From contig OY969699.1 of NCBI GenBank assembly GCA_963702025.1, positions 64,001-128,000 on the forward strand: a stretch of 64,000 bases of DNA, written 5' to 3'. The translations under genes and the position numbers were made by a program. A model generated the notes under the pieces. That model saw nothing but the letters and a program-made list of their open reading frames with translations, made no database searches and was not told the DNA's origin. This DNA is from an uncultured bacterium (GTDB taxonomy: Bacteria > Babelota > Babeliae > Babelales > Vermiphilaceae). Shown piece after piece: positions 6,111 to 17,147 of this stretch. Each line of letters begins with the position of its first letter. The stretch's first letter is position 1.

Positions 6111-7580
6111 ATGGAAAAAGCAGTCATCTATGCCCGAGTATCATCCAAAGACCAAGAAGCAGAAGGTTTCTCGATCCCCGCTCAAATAAAAGCACTTCAA
6201 GAATATGCGGCAAAGAATCATCTTATTGTCATCCAAGAGTTTACCGATGTGGAGACTGCAAAAAAGGCAGGCCGCACACAATTTAATAAGATGCTAACAT
6301 TCATTAATGAAAATAAGCATATCAAACACATTTTAGTTGAAAAAACTGATCGCTTACTCAGAAATATACCCGATTATGCCCTTATTGATCGCTTAATACT
6401 CTATTCTGATATTAAAATTCACTTGATTAAAGAAGGCAATATCCTCAGTAAAGATTCCAAATCAAACGATAAGTTTATATTTGGCATAAAAGCACTGATG
6501 GCTAAAAACTTTGTGGATAATCTTTCTGAAGAGGTTAGAAAAGGGATGGCAGAAAAAACTGCCCAGGGTATTTATCCATCAACTGCGCCCTACGGATATG
6601 TAAATGTCCGTGAAAATGGTAAAAGCATAATCAAAGTTGATCCTCTGGCGGCTGCCTATGTGAAACAAATGTTTGAACACTATGCAACCGGCGGTTATTC
6701 ACTAAAAACCTTAAGAAAAAAAATGCTTGATGATGGGATGGTTTATCGCAATGGCAAAAATTTTTATAAAAGCAAGGTAGAAGGTATTCTGAAAAATGAA
6801 TTCTACACCGGCATTTTTATCTATCGCGGCAAGCGATATGATAATGCAACCCATGAGCCAATCATCAGCAAAGAATTATTTCAACGTGTACAGGATGTGA
6901 TGACCAATCCCTATAAAAGTAAATCTAGAAAAGGGCTTTTTCCTTATACCAATCTCATTGCCTGCGGCATGTGTGGTTGCGCATTAACTGCCGAAATTAA
7001 AAAAGAAAAGTACATTTACTATCATTGTTCTGGCTACAAGGGCAACTGCAAACAAGGCACTATACGTCAAGAAGCTATCGAAGCCCGATTTGAATCGATG
7101 CTTGAAGACATGTATATCCCCGATGATATTCAAGAAAGTATTCTGCAGGGGCTACGTAGCAGTTTTAAGGATAAGATTGAGTATCGCGCCAGTCTTGTGG
7201 ATCAACTGCAAAAACAGATCAAGCTTTTACAAAGTAGGATAGATAAGACTTACATCGATAAGATTGACGGAAAAATTTCTGAAGAATACTGGGCCACTCA
7301 CACCCAAGATTGGGCGAATGAAAAAGATATCTTAATGATAAAGCTTGTGGCAGTAGAAAAAGCAGATTCTCATTATTTGGAAAACGCGAATATTATTTTA
7401 GAACTCGCCAAAAAGGCCTCCCAGCTGTTTAAACAGCAAAATGCGGAGCAAAAACGTAGATTGATCAATTTGTTAGTACAGAACTGCTCTTATAAAGATA
7501 AGAACCTTGATGTAGAGCTGAAACCAGTGTTTGGCGAGATCATGAAATCATCAAAAACTAGAAATTGGTGTGCCCGATAG
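6111..7580 (+). CDS. Large serine recombinase (integrase)
   Basis: YARVSS catalytic Ser, DRLLR, APYGY, HEPIIS, CGMCG...YYHC zinc ribbon, C-terminal coiled coil. Confidence 0.95.
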   Translation: MEKAVIYARVSSKDQEAEGFSIPAQIKALQEYAAKNHLIVIQEFTDVETAKKAGRTQFNKMLTFINENKHIKHILVEKTDRLLRNIPDYALIDRLILYSDIKIHLIKEGNILSKDSKSNDKFIFGIKALMAKNFVDNLSEEVRKGMAEKTAQGIYPSTAPYGYVNVRENGKSIIKVDPLAAAYVKQMFEHYATGGYSLKTLRKKMLDDGMVYRNGKNFYKSKVEGILKNEFYTGIFIYRGKRYDNATHEPIISKELFQRVQDVMTNPYKSKSRKGLFPYTNLIACGMCGCALTAEIKKEKYIYYHCSGYKGNCKQGTIRQEAIEARFESMLEDMYIPDDIQESILQGLRSSFKDKIEYRASLVDQLQKQIKLLQSRIDKTYIDKIDGKISEEYWATHTQDWANEKDILMIKLVAVEKADSHYLENANIILELAKKASQLFKQQNAEQKRRLINLLVQNCSYKDKNLDVELKPVFGEIMKSSKTRNWCAR

Positions 7581-7642
7581 GATTCGAACCTATGACCTAC
7601 GGATTAGAAATCCGTTGCTCTATCCAGCTGAGCTACGGGCAC
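7566..7642 (-). tRNA. tRNA-Arg(UCU)
   Basis: Reverse complement GTGCCCG...ACGGA-TT-TCT-AA-TCCGT...GGTTCGAATCC...CGGGCAC-ACCA, 77 nt, CCA encoded. Confidence 0.97.
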
Positions 7643-9510: not shown

Positions 9511-11217
9511 ATGTTATATACGTCAAAATATGCACCTTTTATGGTGTTTTTACTCGTTTCAGGCCCTTTAATGGGTATGGAACTTCCCTATCGCTTAAAT
9601 AATGCAAATTATGAAGCAAAAAATGCGATTTTCCCCATTGTTGAAGCAGGGAGCCCTGCCGATCTAGATCGGGTACTGCAAAGATTCCAAAATATCTCAA
9701 TAAATGAAATTGCCAATGACCAAGAAATGGTACCTTTATTGGTAGCTGCAGTTAATGGCAATTTGCTCGTTGTAGAATACCTTATTAACGTGCATGGCGC
9801 TGATACGGGGATTACACATCATGGCCAAAATGCACTGCATAAGGCAGCGGCAAATGGGCATCTTGATGTGGTTCAATACCTTGTTGAACAATGCCACTTT
9901 GATGTTGAATTTCCTGATGAATCAGGCAATATTCCCCTTGATTTAGCTAAAAATAATGGCCATGATCAAGTTGCTAATTATCTTGCTATTTGGGCTCAAC
10001 CAGTAGCTCCGGCGGCACTTGTAGCAAAAGCTGCTCCAAAAACAGCACCAGCAGTTGCTCAAAGACCTGCGGTTAAACAACCTATTGCACCGGTGACAAA
10101 GGCACCTGCAGTTCCTCAAAGGCCCGCAGAACCAAAAAATAATGCGCCAGCAAATCAAAAAGAAGCGAACTGCCAAATTTGCTTTGATTCTAAACAATTG
10201 CAAAAACTGAACTGTGGCCACGAATTCTGCGGTGAATGTTTAAATGGTATGCTTGATACTGCAATCCGCGATAAATCAAGCAATGCGCTCAAATGCCCAA
10301 CACCAAACTGTGCAAAAGCATTTGAACCCAAAGATATAAATACCATTAATAAAGCCAAAGCGGTTCAAATACTCGATATTCAAGCCCGCGAAGCAATGGC
10401 AAAAGATAACAATATTAAACATTGCCCAACCCCCGATTGCCCGTATTCATTTGTTAATGATGCCAATAGAGCAGAAACAATTCGCTGCGAACAATGCAGA
10501 AAAGAATATTGTTCAAATTGTTTAACTCAACACGCGCAAAAAGTTTCTTGCGAGCAAGCGAAGAAAGATTCTGCCGCAGAAAGAGCAACTCAGCAATGGA
10601 AAGATGCCAATACAAAACAATGTCCTCAATGCAAAAAGAATATTCAAAAAGATGGCGGTTGTATGCATATGACCTGTGCACAATGTCATTATGAATTTTG
10701 TTGGAACTGCATGAAAAGATGGAATGCATATGAGCATCCAAATTCTTACAGCTGCTATCAAGCACCACAACAACCAGTTAACAATAATGCAATCGTAAAC
10801 GAGCCATATGTACCCGTTCACACTGAAAATGATTTTGAAGATGGCGATATTGCTTTTGGCGTACCAGCTCAAGCCTTTGCAGTGAATAATAGAAGAGATG
10901 ATCATAGGCAACCAAATATGAATCGCATGACACAACGTCAGATCCAAAACTTTGGTCCAGTTGATTATGCAATGCGACAAAGAACTTTTAACTTTGGCGC
11001 AGTGCCACGTGATTTTAATCGTTTTAGGGCCCTTTTACTCAGAAACCAAATTACACTTATTAGAAGTGAATTTACCCGCGAAGTAAATAACGCAAGAGCA
11101 GATTACTTGGTACGTGAGATCACCACATGGTCCATTGGGGTTAATTATCATCCAAGCCAAGAAAATAGAGTTCAAGAATTGGTATTCAATGCATATCTCG
11201 AAGCAATGAATAACTAA
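9511..11217 (+). CDS. Signal peptide-ankyrin-RBR (RING1-IBR-RING2) E3 ubiquitin ligase 1
   Basis: About 3 ANK repeats (NALHKAAANGH), Pro/Ala linker, RING1 CQIC..CGHEFCGEC..CPTPNC, IBR CPTPDC..CEQC..CSNC..H..C, RING2 TKQCPQCKKNIQKDGGCMHMTCAQCHYEFCWNC. Confidence 0.92.
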   Translation: MLYTSKYAPFMVFLLVSGPLMGMELPYRLNNANYEAKNAIFPIVEAGSPADLDRVLQRFQNISINEIANDQEMVPLLVAAVNGNLLVVEYLINVHGADTGITHHGQNALHKAAANGHLDVVQYLVEQCHFDVEFPDESGNIPLDLAKNNGHDQVANYLAIWAQPVAPAALVAKAAPKTAPAVAQRPAVKQPIAPVTKAPAVPQRPAEPKNNAPANQKEANCQICFDSKQLQKLNCGHEFCGECLNGMLDTAIRDKSSNALKCPTPNCAKAFEPKDINTINKAKAVQILDIQAREAMAKDNNIKHCPTPDCPYSFVNDANRAETIRCEQCRKEYCSNCLTQHAQKVSCEQAKKDSAAERATQQWKDANTKQCPQCKKNIQKDGGCMHMTCAQCHYEFCWNCMKRWNAYEHPNSYSCYQAPQQPVNNNAIVNEPYVPVHTENDFEDGDIAFGVPAQAFAVNNRRDDHRQPNMNRMTQRQIQNFGPVDYAMRQRTFNFGAVPRDFNRFRALLLRNQITLIRSEFTREVNNARADYLVREITTWSIGVNYHPSQENRVQELVFNAYLEAMNN

Positions 11218-11236
11218 AATATTTGGAGATACATCC

Positions 11237-12745
11237 ATGTCAGTATTTTTGATAAAAAAGGTTTTCCCTTTAGTGATACTCATATCCGTACCCGTAATAA
11301 GTATGGAAAAAGCGGAAAAAATTATTGCCATACAGAAGGCTGCAACTAATCCTCTGCATGAAGCTGCGGCCCAGGGTAATTTGGATAAAATTCGCTTTTT
11401 AATTGAAAAATCCGGCATGGATGTAAATGCTACCGATGCAGATAATAATATTGCTTTAGATTTCGCCAAAAAAAATCATCATAATGCAGTTGCCAATTAC
11501 CTTGTGGCAACAATGAATAAAGTTGAAAAAATAAAAAAAACTGTCGATGAGAATAAAGAATTCATGGAACTCGCAGATCTGTTTGCAAAAGAGCTAAAAG
11601 TACTCGATCCTTTACGCATGTGCAATATTTGTTTGGATGAAAAAAGTAGTCCTGAATTTAGCACGCTCGGTTGCAATCATGAATTTTGTACTACATGTTT
11701 GGATAAATTTATCAAGACTGCATGCAAGGATCACTCTACCGCTGCGTTGCGCTGCCCCATTGTTGCATGTAAAAAAACAATTGAAAATAAAGATTTTCCA
11801 AAAATTACCGACGCACAAAGTATTGCAAAACTTGAAGAGATACAACTGCAAGAATGGATTATAAAACAACCGGGAGCAAAACAGTGCCCAACTCCGGAAT
11901 GTAAATATGCATTTATTGCTGACGGCAGTAATCAAAAACAAAACATTCAGTGCCCACGATGCAAAGAACATTATTGCTCTCATTGTTTAATAAATCATCC
12001 AAAACAGATCTCATGCGAAGATGCTAATCCTGAAAGAGCATCTGATACTTGGAAAAATGCGCATACTAAACCCTGTCCACAATGCAAAGCGCCGATAGAA
12101 AAAAACGAGGGTTGTTTGCATATGACATGTCAGGCCTGTCATCATGAATTTTGCTGGGAATGTTTGGTACCCTATAAAGAGATGAAGCATGGCTTCTATA
12201 AATGTGAAAAAGTTGCATCTCAAAATTCAACAACTTCAGCAGAGCCCGATTCGCCCGAAGCACTACTAGCTCGCGGAAGGGCGTTTTTAGATGAAGCCGA
12301 CCGAAGACTCGCTCGCGAAGCGGCGACTCTTGATGAAGGCGACCAAATGCTCGCTCGCGCAGAAGCGGTTATTGCAAGATTGAGAAACCAAACATCTGCA
12401 AACAATGTAAACAGACCAGATCAGGACATCGATATTGATGATCATAATGCAAGCATAATAAGCATTATGAATAGAGCGGATCAATTAATTGCTAGACATG
12501 AACATCATATTTTTGCTGAGAATCCAACAAATACTATCCGGATCACCGCCCATCCCATCCGATATCTTAAATACGGGTTTATTTTTCGTTTTATGGATTT
12601 ATCTCAAGATCAACGTAATGCGTGGGCCACCGCAATTGATCAAAGAAATATTGCTCATTTGAATGCTTGGCAGCGCGCAGATATCTGGGAAGAAGAATTA
12701 CAAATATTAGAAAGTGCTCAAACCCAAATTACCGGCAACAAATAA
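11237..12745 (+). CDS. Signal peptide-ankyrin-RBR E3 ubiquitin ligase 2
   Basis: ANK NPLHEAAAQGN; RING1 CNIC..CNHEFCTTC..CPIVAC; IBR CPTPEC..CPRC..CSHC..H..C; RING2 TKPCPQCKAPIEKNEGCLHMTCQACHHEFCWEC. Confidence 0.92.
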   Translation: MSVFLIKKVFPLVILISVPVISMEKAEKIIAIQKAATNPLHEAAAQGNLDKIRFLIEKSGMDVNATDADNNIALDFAKKNHHNAVANYLVATMNKVEKIKKTVDENKEFMELADLFAKELKVLDPLRMCNICLDEKSSPEFSTLGCNHEFCTTCLDKFIKTACKDHSTAALRCPIVACKKTIENKDFPKITDAQSIAKLEEIQLQEWIIKQPGAKQCPTPECKYAFIADGSNQKQNIQCPRCKEHYCSHCLINHPKQISCEDANPERASDTWKNAHTKPCPQCKAPIEKNEGCLHMTCQACHHEFCWECLVPYKEMKHGFYKCEKVASQNSTTSAEPDSPEALLARGRAFLDEADRRLAREAATLDEGDQMLARAEAVIARLRNQTSANNVNRPDQDIDIDDHNASIISIMNRADQLIARHEHHIFAENPTNTIRITAHPIRYLKYGFIFRFMDLSQDQRNAWATAIDQRNIAHLNAWQRADIWEEELQILESAQTQITGNK

Positions 12746-13028
12746 CTCTCTTGATCGCGTTATGGCACGCAATGAACATGAACTTTTTGCAGCAAATCCT
12801 AATGATCCTGTGCATTCATTTCCTTTTCGCCACCTTGTCAATGCCGATTTTGTTGGCCGCTTTACGCAGCTTTCTACAGCGCAACGTAATAATTGGAAGA
12901 TTGCAGTTGGCCAAAGAACAAATGGCATTTTAGACATTCTGGAACGCGCAGACATCTGGGAAGAGGAATTGTCTCGCATAGAAATACAGCAAATAAGGGA
13001 CGACTCAATAAAACTGTATTTGCTTTAG
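12714..13028 (+). CDS. Out-of-frame second copy of the RBR2 C-terminal module (frameshifted extension, or a separate gene from ATG 12762)
   Basis: ARNEHELFAANP...RFTQLS..QRNNW..RADIWEEEL matches ARHEHHIFAENP...RFMDLS..QRNAW..RADIWEEEL in RBR2. Confidence 0.6.
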   Translation: MLKPKLPATNNSLDRVMARNEHELFAANPNDPVHSFPFRHLVNADFVGRFTQLSTAQRNNWKIAVGQRTNGILDILERADIWEEELSRIEIQQIRDDSIKLYLL

Positions 13029-13050: not shown

Positions 13051-13077
13051 GGTCTGCAAAATAGCAGGACTTTTTTA
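13051..13077. terminator. Intrinsic terminator
   Basis: gtctgc-aaaata-gcaggac hairpin followed by T6. Confidence 0.55.
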
Positions 13078-13110
13078 TTCCTATGGCGCAAAGACTAAGC
13101 AAAATTCCTT
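13077..13110 (-). repeat. Copy of the atpA 3' end (KEFCLVFAP*)
   Basis: 30/34 nt identical to 15647-15680 by manual alignment. Confidence 0.85.
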
Positions 13111-13215
13111 TATATTGATAAAAATATTTCTATTTGTTAAAATTATTGATTTGCAGTTATCTAATCTGATATCTTTCTTTTAGTAGTTATTTTTTTATTA
13201 TAAAAGGTAGTAGAA

Positions 13216-14232
13216 ATGGTAAAAATAGATAAATTTGCAGTATTTATTCTGGTTTTGCTCACTTTTAATCTTACAAAGCCAGTGGAAATTACTAAACAAA
13301 CGGACACAAGGTCTGCTGTTGAATTACTTCCTGTTGAACTTCAAACGCAAATTCTACACTATGTAGTCAAGGCCCCCGGAGCAACACAGGAGGAAAAATT
13401 AAAAAATGCTACTGCAAATATCCGCAATTTAATCAAAACCAATAGAGCATCTGAAGACCTTTTAAATGATGAGAACATCACCACATATCTTATTAACGAA
13501 TTAGCACGATATACACACTCGAATCAGCCTTTAGCTGCCATAGCTTTAGGGACCATTGGCGCACGAAACTGGTTTACCGACTACGCTAAAAACGAAGCCA
13601 ATTTATCAAAAATCGCAGAAATCTTACGGAATATAGCCTCGAAGTGTCAATTACATAAGGGAGATTTGGACATTGTCGAATTCATTTGTACGTATGCACC
13701 AAATGCAGTTAATATTATTGCAAACTCTGAGAAAAAAACTGCCTTGATATTTGCCGCAGAGCGTGGTCATACTGCCATTGTAAAAAAATTATTACAAGCT
13801 TCTACTCTTTCAGTTAATTTTCAAAGCAACAATGGAAATACTGCATTGATCTCCGCAGCAAAAGCAGGCCATACTGCTATCGTCCAACAATTATTGGCAG
13901 TTAAAGGTATTAATGTTAACACAAGAAACAAACAGCAGCAAAATGCATTATTCTTTGCAGCAACAGCTAATAAAACTGAAATCATGGAGAACTTATTAGC
14001 AGTCCCAGGCGTTAATGTTAATATACAAAATGAATTATCGGGAAATACTCTCTTAATGGTGACGGCGCGCAATGGCAATGTTCAAATTGTAAAAAAATTA
14101 TTAAAAAATCCCAGCGTCAAAGTAAATTTGAAAAATATAATTGGGGAGACTGCATTAGGAAGTGCAGAACAATCGAATGCTGCGAACAAAGAAACTATTA
14201 TTGAGCTTTTAAAGAAAAATGGCGCCAAATAA
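13216..14232 (+). CDS. Exported F-box-like/ankyrin repeat protein
   Basis: Signal peptide; LLPVELQTQILHYV; about 5 ANK repeats (TALIFAAERGH, TALISAAKAGH). Confidence 0.85.
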   Translation: MVKIDKFAVFILVLLTFNLTKPVEITKQTDTRSAVELLPVELQTQILHYVVKAPGATQEEKLKNATANIRNLIKTNRASEDLLNDENITTYLINELARYTHSNQPLAAIALGTIGARNWFTDYAKNEANLSKIAEILRNIASKCQLHKGDLDIVEFICTYAPNAVNIIANSEKKTALIFAAERGHTAIVKKLLQASTLSVNFQSNNGNTALISAAKAGHTAIVQQLLAVKGINVNTRNKQQQNALFFAATANKTEIMENLLAVPGVNVNIQNELSGNTLLMVTARNGNVQIVKKLLKNPSVKVNLKNIIGETALGSAEQSNAANKETIIELLKKNGAK

Positions 14233-14251
14233 GAAATAATGAGCAGATTTT

Positions 14252-14279
14252 AAGAGCCACAAGCGCAGGCCCTTTTTTT
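14252..14279. terminator. Intrinsic terminator
   Basis: aagagcc...ggccc imperfect hairpin followed by T7. Confidence 0.45.
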
Positions 14280-14362
14280 ATTCCTGCGGCGCAAACACCA
14301 AGGTAAATTCTTTGGCAATCACTATCAACTCCCCTCACTTATCTATCGGCAATATCTTCCGT
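14280..14362 (-). repeat. Copy of the atpA 3' end (ELIVIAKEFTLVFAPQE*)
   Basis: 14280-14328 is 43/49 identical to 15647-15695; weaker homology (TEDIAD vs TADITD) extends to about 14362. Confidence 0.88.
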
Positions 14363-14511
14363 TCTTACTTATATTTTCTACTTTGGAAAATTTTCAAATA
14401 GAATTTTTATTCGAAGGTATGGGCATTTATTGTATTGCCATAATCCGCAATTTGAGCTACTTTTGACAGTAAGTATGTTACTTACTTATTTATTCTATCT
14501 GGAGGATTTTC

Positions 14512-15042
14512 ATGAAAAATATAATCTTTCTACTGCTTAGTTGCTGTGCATTCAATCTTAGGGTTTGCGCAGATGAAAAACAAGGTTATTCACACTTTAC
14601 TGGTTCGGCCTCAATGCTTACCGAATTTGACCGCGAGCATATGTCCAAAATGAAGGAGCAAGTTTCTCAGTTTTGTGAAAATGTATTAGTAGAGGGATAT
14701 TGGGCCTCATCGGCAAACCTCGAAGATGATTTTTATCATGGCGCCTATCCTTTTCCCATAGCACATGAACTATCATGGCCGGGGCAACAGCAGTTTCTTG
14801 CAAAATTAGCGCAACTTGAAAAATCAAACAATGTAGAAAAGAAGCTGATACGAGGATTTACCTTTTCACGATTAGGCTATGAAGGATGGGATGGTAATTT
14901 ATATAGTTGCAGCGAATATTGGTACAAAGATGGTTCGCGCAGTATAGTCTGGACCGATGCATTTGGACCTTTTTATGTCGCTCAACGGAATGTAAAACCA
15001 TCACGTGAATTTTATAATTTTGTTATGAATATCTCTCTTTAA
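14512..15042 (+). CDS. Hypothetical exported protein
   Basis: GGAGG RBS, signal peptide, EGYW...RGF..SRL...NVKPSREFYNFV. Confidence 0.7.
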   Translation: MKNIIFLLLSCCAFNLRVCADEKQGYSHFTGSASMLTEFDREHMSKMKEQVSQFCENVLVEGYWASSANLEDDFYHGAYPFPIAHELSWPGQQQFLAKLAQLEKSNNVEKKLIRGFTFSRLGYEGWDGNLYSCSEYWYKDGSRSIVWTDAFGPFYVAQRNVKPSREFYNFVMNISL

Positions 15043-15055
15043 ACTGAAGGTTTTT

Positions 15056-15613
15056 ATGAAAAAACAGATCATATCACTAGTTTTATCTATCATACTCATA
15101 GCCATGCCTTTAGATATAGTTGGCCAGATTTTAAATTCACAAAACCAACCGGCTGCTAGCGGGGATGAATTTACCTCATGGCAACCCAACCCATCATTAA
15201 TACCTTTGTTGGATAGATTTTATGCAGATGCTTCTCAGACTGATTATACCTATCAGTTAAATGCTAACTTTTTTTGTTCATTGTATCAAAGCGTTAGCTC
15301 ACATGCGTGGAAATCTGAAGAAGAGAAGCTTGAGGCACAACGCTTATACAAATATATAGCAATATATCTTCATTATGCGTTCGACTTGTTACAAAAGCGA
15401 AAAGATTTAGTACAACGCTACCTTTCCGTTTGGAAAGAGGCAACGGGCCAAGAATTCACTGAAGATGATTTTTGGCAGTATTGTAGCACTGACGATGAAT
15501 CAGTGTTTACGCCTGAAGCAAAACTTTTGAATTTCTTTCTTACCGATATCATTGTCGAACAAGAAATTGAGAAATATGTTGAATCATCGTTAAAGTCATT
15601 GTATCAAGAATAA
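15056..15613 (+). CDS. Hypothetical exported protein
   Basis: Signal peptide; co-oriented 13 nt after the previous gene. Confidence 0.65.
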   Translation: MKKQIISLVLSIILIAMPLDIVGQILNSQNQPAASGDEFTSWQPNPSLIPLLDRFYADASQTDYTYQLNANFFCSLYQSVSSHAWKSEEEKLEAQRLYKYIAIYLHYAFDLLQKRKDLVQRYLSVWKEATGQEFTEDDFWQYCSTDDESVFTPEAKLLNFFLTDIIVEQEIEKYVESSLKSLYQE

Positions 15614-15650
15614 TAAAAGAGTTTGAACCGCTGCAGATTCTCTCTCATTC

Positions 15651-17147
15651 CTACGGCGCAAAGACTAAGCTAAACTCTTTGGCGATCACTATCAAATCTT
15701 CTTTAATCTCATCGGTGATGTCTGCTGTCTGCTCAATCACATCGTAGACTGGCCGATAGAGCGATTTGGTGAAACTGACAAATTGTGTAGCAAATGAATG
15801 CACCTGCTTTACGGCAATCGCATCTAAGAAATTCTCTTTTAATAAAAATAACATTAATGCCTGATCCACAAAAGAATACGTGGTATATTGCGGCTGCTTG
15901 AGCAATTCAATAATTCGCGCGCCACGGGCCAATTTGCGCTGCGAGACTTCATCAAGTTCTGTGCCAAATTGCGCAAAATCGAGAAGCTCATGATACTGCG
16001 CTAATTCTAGCCGCAATGCTTTGGTCATTTTTTTAATTGCATTCGTTTGCGCTGCACCGCCAACACGCGATACTGATAATTCAACGTTCACTGCCGGGCG
16101 CACCCCTTCATTGAATAAAGTGGTGTCCAAAAAAATTTGACCATCGGTAATTGAAATGAGATTAGTTGGAATGTAGGCAGTAATATCATCACTTTGAATT
16201 TGCACAATCGGTAATGCAGTAATGGAGCCACCGACTGCCAATTTTCCTGCGCGTTCTAACAAACGGGAATGCAAATAGAATACATCGCCCGGGTACGCTT
16301 CGCGACCTGGTGCACGGCGCAAAAGCAACGACATTTCTCGGTAGGCAATTGCATGATTGGAAAGATCGTCGTAAATAATTAATACATCTTTTTGCTGGTC
16401 CCTAAAAAATTCGGCAATCGTGCAGGCCGCATAGGGGGCAAGATAAGCGTTTAATACCGTTTCACTTGAATCGGCACTCACCACTACCGTGTAATCAAGC
16501 GCACCCTTTTCTTCTAATTCTTGCACAATGCGAGCCAAATTTGCCTGCCGTTGCGCGATAGAAACATAGATGCAAATAACATTTTTATCTTTTTGATGCA
16601 CAATAGTATCTAAAACAATAGACGTTTTACCGGCATTTCTGTTACCGATAATAAGTTCTCGCTGCCCTTTACCAATCGGTTCGAGCGCATCAATCACCAG
16701 TATGCCTGTTTCTAATGATTCATTAACCGGGCTCCGCTGCGTAATACCGGCAATAGGCTCCTCAACGGCACGATATTCTGTTGCATTAATTTTTCCCAGC
16801 GCATCTATTGGCTTGCCCAATGCATTCACTACGCGGCCAAGCAACTGATTGCTCACCGGCACCCGAAACACATTATTGGTACGTTTTGCCACTTCCAATT
16901 CCGTAACGGGAATACTGCTATCGAGCAAAAATATTGCTACAGAATCTTCATCCAAATTAAAAATAATGCCGCTATTGCCCGATTCAAATTGTATAAGTTC
17001 GCCATATTTTGCATTATTTAAGCCATGAACAAAACAGATGTTATCGCCCACTTTTATAACCAGGCCGATTTCTTCGAGCTTCTGATCTGAAAGCCCTTGT
17101 AATGCTTTTTCAAACAGCGAAACCAGATCAGTAGTCTTAATATCCAT
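15651..17147 (-). CDS. atpA: F1 ATP synthase subunit alpha
   Basis: IGKGQRELIIG, PGREAYPGDVFYLHSRLLERA, SVSRVGG. Confidence 0.98.
   Translation of the reverse strand: MDIKTTDLVSLFEKALQGLSDQKLEEIGLVIKVGDNICFVHGLNNAKYGELIQFESGNSGIIFNLDEDSVAIFLLDSSIPVTELEVAKRTNNVFRVPVSNQLLGRVVNALGKPIDALGKINATEYRAVEEPIAGITQRSPVNESLETGILVIDALEPIGKGQRELIIGNRNAGKTSIVLDTIVHQKDKNVICIYVSIAQRQANLARIVQELEEKGALDYTVVVSADSSETVLNAYLAPYAACTIAEFFRDQQKDVLIIYDDLSNHAIAYREMSLLLRRAPGREAYPGDVFYLHSRLLERAGKLAVGGSITALPIVQIQSDDITAYIPTNLISITDGQIFLDTTLFNEGVRPAVNVELSVSRVGGAAQTNAIKKMTKALRLELAQYHELLDFAQFGTELDEVSQRKLARGARIIELLKQPQYTTYSFVDQALMLFLLKENFLDAIAVKQVHSFATQFVSFTKSLYRPVYDVIEQTADITDEIKEDLIVIAKEFSLVFAP

Follow-up and report, generated by a model that had tools for sequence, protein, structure and literature searches.

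We analysed a 64,000-nucleotide (nt) stretch of DNA, hereafter the window (G000:C1:64001-128000), from the single-contig 1.596-Mb genome G000 (Babeliales/Dependentiae), in which two short copies of the end of atpA lie downstream of the gene itself. The atpA gene is the last of an atpE-atpF'-atpF-atpH-atpA run and faces convergent genes. Reading away from atpA, the order is atpA, cassette B, an orphan gene end (tail T2), cassette A, a second orphan end (tail T1) and two genes for proteins with ankyrin repeats (ANK) and a RING-IBR-RING (RBR) module (Table 1).

Table 1. Features of the atpA locus, in positions of the window.
Feature	Position	Strand	Description
atpA	15651..17147	-	F1 ATP synthase alpha subunit, 498 amino acids (aa); open reading frame (ORF) list and Pfam
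Working repeat copy	15647-15698	-	last 48 nt of atpA plus 4 nt
Cassette B	14332-15646		1.32 kb, two ORFs without a Pfam match
ORF B2	15056..15613	+	185 aa, hydrophobic N-terminus, no Pfam match
ORF B1	14512..15042	+	176 aa; distant homologs carry DUF7919
Orphan tail T2	14280..14331	-	48 coding nt plus 4, E-L-I-V-I-A-K-E-F-T-L-V-F-A-P-Q-E-stop; 45/52 identical to 15647-15698
Cassette A	13111-14279		1.17 kb, one ORF
Cassette A protein	13216..14232	+	338 aa, ankyrin repeats, hydrophobic N-terminus, family-specific N-terminal domain
Orphan tail T1	13077..13110	-	30 coding nt plus 4, K-E-F-C-L-V-F-A-P-stop; 30/34 identical to the atpA end
Terminator-like hairpin	13053..13068	+	weak hairpin and T run, between the RBR genes and T1
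Two ANK-RBR genes	9511-11217, 11237-12745	+	
tRNA-Arg(TCT)	7566-7642	-	serine recombinase stop codon inside its 3' end
Large serine recombinase	6111..7580	+	overlaps the tRNA-Arg 3' end; 5.5 kb from the tails

Both tails are direct copies, with T2 lying 1367 nt and T1 2570 nt downstream of the atpA end. The initial annotation had reported matches of 43/49 (14280-14328) and 30/34, both of which we confirmed, and the T2 match could be extended to its full 52 nt. In a genome-wide BLAST search, T2 and T1 were found at E = 2e-11 and 6e-6, respectively, the next-best match to the atpA end having E = 0.13; 1500 random trials against unrelated 3-kb regions gave chance maxima of 32/52 and 24/34 without gaps. 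The seven synonymous changes listed previously were correct, and each copy does keep an in-frame stop, which is TAG in T1 and, two codons later, TAA in T2. The non-synonymous changes are AGC/ACC (S/T), TAG/CAG (stop/Q) and AGC/TGC (S/C), together with GAT/GAG at the T2 edge. The double recombination scar at atpA is real and well preserved.

At four positions, the early TAG among them, atpA and T1 agree and T2 differs; at three others atpA agrees with T2 instead and T1 differs. At the stop position of atpA and T1, T2 has Gln, like the working allele of G006, a genome of the same genus, and the Thr of T2 occurs in 9 of 91 natural alleles. This pattern is out of clock order and fits allele exchange better than clonal descent. 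The working atpA ends at TAG (15651-15653), two codons before the T2 allele and that of G006 (…PQE-stop), and the former stop persists in frame downstream. A terminator hairpin had also been placed at each copy. We rejected strong terminators there, as a single terminator-like match was found, on the T1 side, and none of the three post-stop regions folded better than shuffled sequences (z -0.20 to +1.25, 6 folds). By eye, the post-stop sequences loosely resemble a hairpin arm behind atpA in G003 and G002.

We compared the locus with an order-level sample of 261 genomes (G000 and 260 others) and a same-genus set of seven genomes. The sampled relatives are other species, none conspecific with G000, and the closest atpA among them is 87% identical at the amino acid level. 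The layout is empty in G003 and G002, two other species of the genus, where 36-37 nt separate the atpA stop from the end of an RBR gene; G006 has two other genes and then an RBR gene behind atpA, and the remaining four same-genus genomes have different genes there. The atpA-RBR layout would therefore be the older one, with T1 likely the old resident end and cassettes A and then B added in front, and the serial capture proposed in the initial annotation fits this arrangement. The RBR pair, which had been pictured just beyond the stack, does occupy that position, but the two genes are probably older downstream neighbours of atpA in the genus, outside the captured blocks.

No atpA tail copy occurred in the seven same-genus genomes within the flanks examined (only 1.0 kb in G004 and 1.5 kb in G002). 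Tails were present in G023 (L039, the same sequence as L148), where 59/64 nt match, all five of the differences are synonymous and the cargo is one 797-aa gene, and in the metagenome locus L054 (38/44). Overall, an orphan atpA tail stood at 1 of 80 genome atpA loci (66 of them with at least 3 kb downstream), and 80 metagenome loci, mostly short or from other phyla, yielded 1 clear case. atpA tails are recurrent but rare, and on these counts we rejected atpA as a dedicated attachment hot spot.

The initial annotation had suggested looking for duplicated 3' ends of other core genes. We scanned the last 200 nt of each ORF for downstream same-strand orphan copies, with mid-gene, upstream and head windows as controls. 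Such tails were found in G000 for 7 of 1258 ORFs, with nine copies in all: atpA (2), typA, recJ (2), sbcC, a metallo-beta-lactamase-fold gene and two accessory genes. Other genomes and contigs (~4.26 Mb, partly overlapping) gave 19 matches from 3178 ORFs, and we kept 16; targets in these relatives included ileS, recD2, glucokinase, an RF-1-domain gene, an SPFH gene, a cyclase and FAD oxidoreductases. In total, 25 tails were kept, with 3 of 28 dropped as intergenic repeats (L277, and L278 twice). We also dropped all matches of the locus L227 (G007:C2:20001-40000), which holds a very long collagen-like (Gly-x-Thr) repeat coding region, and, in one scan of relatives, queries with more than three matches. 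The mid-gene windows of G000 produced a single downstream match, a tRNA. The G000 controls were not empty (tails upstream, 4; heads upstream, 9; mid-gene, 3); judged by reading, the upstream heads were mostly paralog starts, and 1 of the 5 checked was single-copy. In one scan of relatives, four mid-gene downstream matches, all weak or palindromic, stood against three tails.

The cargo between gene and tail measures 0.45-5.8 kb, lies in either orientation and usually has lower GC content than its anchor gene. Reading of the ORFs suggests exported-looking proteins, ankyrin proteins, toxin-antitoxin-like pairs and a small nuclease. The term effector cassettes, applied earlier to A and B, was conjecture, and cargo elsewhere appears to include an MNT-HEPN-like pair, a DUF433-like gene and a GIY-YIG-like nuclease. 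Cassettes behind housekeeping genes contained no integrase-sized gene. Copies of a 5' end, the mirror case, were also found: G000 has one at a cyclase gene and G007 one at Ku. Empty layouts could also be recognized away from atpA: in G020 a kinase gene lies directly behind recJ, and in G006 sbcC is closely followed by a gene that, judged by eye, is likely homologous to the one behind the orphan sbcC tail of G000. We found no census of such tails for Babelota in the literature covered, which left out most subscription journals and supplements.

Individual cases varied in structure. The typA cassette (G000:C1:490272-490809, L286), which a 48-nt typA tail brackets, consists of one small gene for a GIY-YIG-like nuclease with palindromes on either side. 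The orphan sbcC tail (G000:C1:1303388-1303445, L288) ends ~5 nt before the start of the next gene and may therefore supply its translation signals, a possible reason for keeping tails. At G000:C1:621162-622250 a gene end and the next gene are repeated, with 98% identity in the gene end and about 79% overall; tandem paralogs may therefore arise by stacking of foreign alleles. The block at G000:C1:36874-47353, bounded by a 107-nt tail copy, contains three toxin-antitoxin-like genes and a recombinase-like fragment and adjoins a frameshifted serine recombinase region.

Duplication followed by neutral decay predicts that 35-46% of differences will be synonymous. Over the 25 tails, the synonymous to non-synonymous ratio was 95:55 (95/150 = 63%; P 2e-12 to 2e-5), and after removal of paralog-array and recombinase-linked cases it was 54:29 over 19 tails. 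For the seven housekeeping tails of G000, 22 of 31 differences were synonymous, and the four atpA tails gave 17:5 (77%; P 6e-5 to 3e-3). These ratios support the view that the orphan tails diverged mainly as working alleles, which the initial annotation had proposed for the atpA copies.

Tail lengths, counted from the 5' edge through the stop codon, were 25, 30, 37, 42, 44, 44, 45, 47, 47, 48, 48, 48, 48, 52, 54, 65, 66, 74, 83, 88, 90, 97, 110, 120 and 127 nt. Twelve of the 25 fell at 42-54 nt and six at 47-48 nt, and ten lay in one 7-nt window, 42-48 nt (P 0.017, scan-corrected, geometric null), in a small sample whose edges are BLAST edges and in which short diverged tails are under-detected. 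By eye, the 30 nt before 19 junctions shared no common motif. We offer only tentatively the idea that a preferred length of ~47-48 nt is the footprint of a fixed step of natural transformation, with gene ends acting as self-renewing, integrase-free insertion ports and tail-cargo-tail units as portable modules that build the accessory arrays of Babelota. Such a footprint might be the remnant of a displaced strand of the displacement loop (D-loop) after ComM/YraN processing, or the shortest second arm that can still pair.

What we observe directly is that the atpA end is repeated in a given order, that the differences lean towards synonymous changes, that scars of this kind follow many genes with no relation to one another, and that relatives have the layout without cassettes. 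To account for this, we favour with moderate confidence an explanation in which the two orphan ends are displaced resident atpA ends, left by two successive integrase-free gains of chromosomal DNA from a close relative, anchored by homology and probably brought in by natural transformation. A donor stretch (atpA body, its own end and cargo) would pair through the long atpA homology, and its far end would join the resident gene somewhere in its final ~50 nt; the cargo would therefore be added while the resident end and everything downstream were kept. The first join would be illegitimate, as in homology-facilitated illegitimate recombination (HFIR). Later, the orphan tail of a tail-cargo-tail unit could serve as a short second homology arm, and the block could therefore be inserted behind the atpA of any relative, whatever lies downstream, so that blocks stack. 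Cassette A would have entered before B, giving atpA-B-T2-A-T1-RBR. Of the two routes named in the initial annotation, homology-facilitated recombination and att-like integration, we accordingly prefer the former. The tail-cargo-tail structure has ordinary geometry for insertion by two D-loops (PMC13663708), out-of-register pairing during transformation yields duplications (PMC3784515), and in Vibrio cholerae one long arm combined with a 40-80-bp arm works (PMC5499599). G000 has comEC, dprA, a comM-type gene, a yraN-type gene and two pilus-ATPase genes.

Several results weigh against this explanation. The competence families also occur in 8-13 of 14 control genomes, and their presence therefore does not establish DNA uptake. 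Matching the tails to the atpA alleles of relatives, a check proposed earlier, gave no donor allele or tract: none of 127 sampled atpA ends, all from other species, was closer to T1 or T2 than the window's own gene (for T2, 41/48 to its own gene and 35/48 to the next best), and donors would therefore be unsampled close relatives. The initial annotation had named tails that match no other atpA allele as a refuting outcome; formally this is what we obtained, but among genomes of other species it is not informative. The short-arm reaction of V. cholerae is ~100-fold less efficient in the wild type and high only in recJ/exoVII mutants (PMC5499599), and G000 has recJ. In Escherichia coli, four true HFIR clones had deletions, not duplications (PMC3240628). 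The T1/T2 pair of the window taken alone is barely significant (7:4, P 0.04-0.19), and several tails lack a synonymous bias (L246, 1:4; ileS, 3:5; L334, 1:4). A 5'-to-3' decay gradient, which the two-arm model predicts, was not significant (P 0.115; gaps 5/7 in the 5' half). Finally, at the Ku locus of G007 the identity of the ANK copies falls from 100% to 67% along their length, and this case could be a tandem duplication.

As another route to the same structure, a donor fragment of tail and cargo might circularise, illegitimately or by pop-out between existing tails, and enter by one crossover inside the ~50-nt tail, so that both copies would be hybrids of working alleles and the atpA body would hold no donor DNA. 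This would explain the direct repeats, the synonymous bias, the many targets and the 5' mirror cases equally well, and 56 of 60 recombinants in E. coli conjugation were partial lacZ-end duplications (109-950 bp in 14 sequenced), ascribed to a single crossover of a recircularised molecule (PMC3240628). However, most tails here are shorter (15 of 25 at 54 nt or less) and 77-98% identical, and would be a poor sole substrate; we regard a circle as possible but doubtful. Still less probable in our view is site-specific integration in trans, in which a recombinase of the genome would use att-like sites at gene ends and the cassette would bring a replacement end, like e14 at icd. The earlier statement that no integrase is present holds between the tails (none lies between 13111 and 15646), but G000 has four serine and two tyrosine recombinase loci, of which one, at tRNA-Arg, is 5.5 kb away. 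The G000 case at genome position 39721 holds a recombinase-like fragment, and the start of T2 and that of the G023 tail fall on almost the same Leu codon, with that of L054 at it or three codons after. Yet the many unrelated targets and variable edges make an integrase in trans unlikely. The same scar stands behind four other housekeeping-type genes of G000 and many genes of relatives, with tails of 25-127 nt and no junction motif, which also speaks against the att-like site suggested earlier and against anything specific to atpA; within the atpA sequence T1 starts 18 nt after T2, tails at atpA are rare, and the nearby recombinase overlaps tRNA-Arg. A search for a second tRNA end within 80 kb found none, and a link between the tails and this recombinase was dropped for want of a partner site in that range.

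Similarly improbable is long target duplication, in which ~50 nt of the resident sequence would be doubled by a nuclease or a staggered break, followed by drift of the two copies within one lineage. It belongs to a known class, two 46-bp cases of Haemophilus influenzae overlap gene ends (PMC2853133), the typA cassette seems to encode a GIY-YIG-like nuclease, and some tails show little synonymous bias. The synonymous share overall and at atpA nevertheless exceeds the neutral prediction, the atpA trio would need TAG>CAG>TAG or two independent identical stops, and cassettes A and B contain no restriction-modification (RM) or nuclease gene. An assembly artefact or multi-strain chimera is the least credible account. 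The genome is metagenome-derived, and under a 31-nt rule only two of five junctions (the cassette-B side of T2 and the atpA end) were bridged in runs X1-X4, which have depth 2-4 and may come from the source campaign. By contrast, the copies are unique and differ at 12-13% of positions, short-read contigs from these runs agree with the assembly (at most one difference per piece), and the same structure is present in other assemblies. The X1-X4 contigs showed no joints or loose ends at the tails, excised or empty forms being judged from contigs only, at this depth.

The cassettes differ in their distribution. The cassette A protein belongs to a family with six members in G000, and three of its relatives lie in tandem at G000:C1:902824-906842; another, with 33% identity, is the cargo at Ku in G007. 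Its annotation as an F-box-ANK protein was upheld for the ankyrin repeats, but an F-box was not detected: Pfam gave no match to one at E up to 5, and the 60 PDB matches listed for an eight-member family profile included none. The N-terminal domain is F-box-like by eye only, an LP-E-x-I motif resembles an F-box, and the label was not confirmed. Cassette B, previously described as a single unit, contains two ORFs. Homologs of B1 occur in 3 of the 260 other genomes of the order (G007, G017 and G015); all lie away from atpA, and the +-1.5 kb examined showed no direct repeats enclosing them. An Atlas search for B1 gave no usable match; B2 had no homolog in these 260 genomes. We therefore rejected the idea that cargo travels with atpA tails, given B1 homologs without direct repeats, B2 without homologs and the cassette A relative at Ku.

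Beyond T1, a 104-aa frame (12714-13028) shares 42% identity with the last ~87 aa of the second RBR protein, making it a tandem or orphan C-terminal module. Two of the three other recombinase matches of G000 lie within 1 kb of tRNA-Gln and tRNA-Asp. In G005 (L035:5013-10187), a serine recombinase is located 5 kb behind atpA, followed by what read as methyltransferase-, endonuclease- and Vsr-like genes.

Taken singly, the atpA locus is an ordinary recombination scar. As a class, orphan tails are simple to count and mark recent gene gain in a lineage that depends on hosts (~0.5% of ORFs scanned). They order the gains at a site and suggest that an essential gene can acquire small accessory genes behind it without a mobile element. 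Should a large census bear out the ~48-nt mode, defined donor DNA could be used to test the illegitimate half of transformation, which is poorly understood.

The e14 prophage of E. coli has an integrase and a fixed site. At icd, the gene keeps working with an end supplied by e14, and a C-terminal piece, icdC, is left as an orphan on the far side of the insert, as at atpA; e14 is a 15-kb prophage, whereas the blocks here are much smaller, have variable boundaries and stand at many genes (PMC13626634), and no integrase lies inside the atpA repeats. Single-crossover duplications in E. coli conjugation likewise place gene-end duplications of variable length around incoming DNA without an integrase, but they are plasmid-borne, with identical homology of 109-950 bp, unlike the G000 tails (PMC3240628).

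In appearance, the locus resembles the long target duplications of RM units (Furuta, Abe and Kobayashi 2010, PMC2853133), which share direct repeats of >30 bp that are unique in the genome, a small insert and the lack of a mobility gene, and most of their hosts are naturally competent. The atpA locus lies within their bounds of an insert <20 kb and a repeat >30 bp without a mobile gene (1.17 + 1.32 kb; 34 + 52 nt), and a preferred tail length of ~47-48 nt, if real, would match the 46-bp duplications of H. influenzae. Unlike that class, the cargo here is an ANK protein and two unannotated proteins rather than R and M genes, the repeat is mostly coding and ends at a stop, and the copies are 82-88% identical and differ as alleles rather than 44/46. 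As for an empty site, which that class places in a strain of the same species, the genomes compared here show an empty layout in other species of the genus.

In the way it works, the scar resembles HFIR and sequential displacement in the type VI secretion system and rhs orphan arrays of V. cholerae (PMC5361080), which share an anchor in a conserved gene, added cargo, a resident part pushed downstream, serial stacking and the lack of an integrase. In V. cholerae the anchor is a toxin-delivery gene and the orphans are whole immunity genes or toxin tips, whereas in G000 any housekeeping gene serves and the orphan is a ~50-nt gene end. An illegitimate joint without a conserved site is seen here too, and for an anchor drawn from a different allele the synonymous bias points to allele exchange, although the sampled atpA records hold no donor. 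We conclude that the atpA scar is likely a known kind of event that recurs across Babeliales, namely gene-end recombination of relatives' DNA without an integrase; new here are the census, the codon test and a possible preferred length of ~48 nt.

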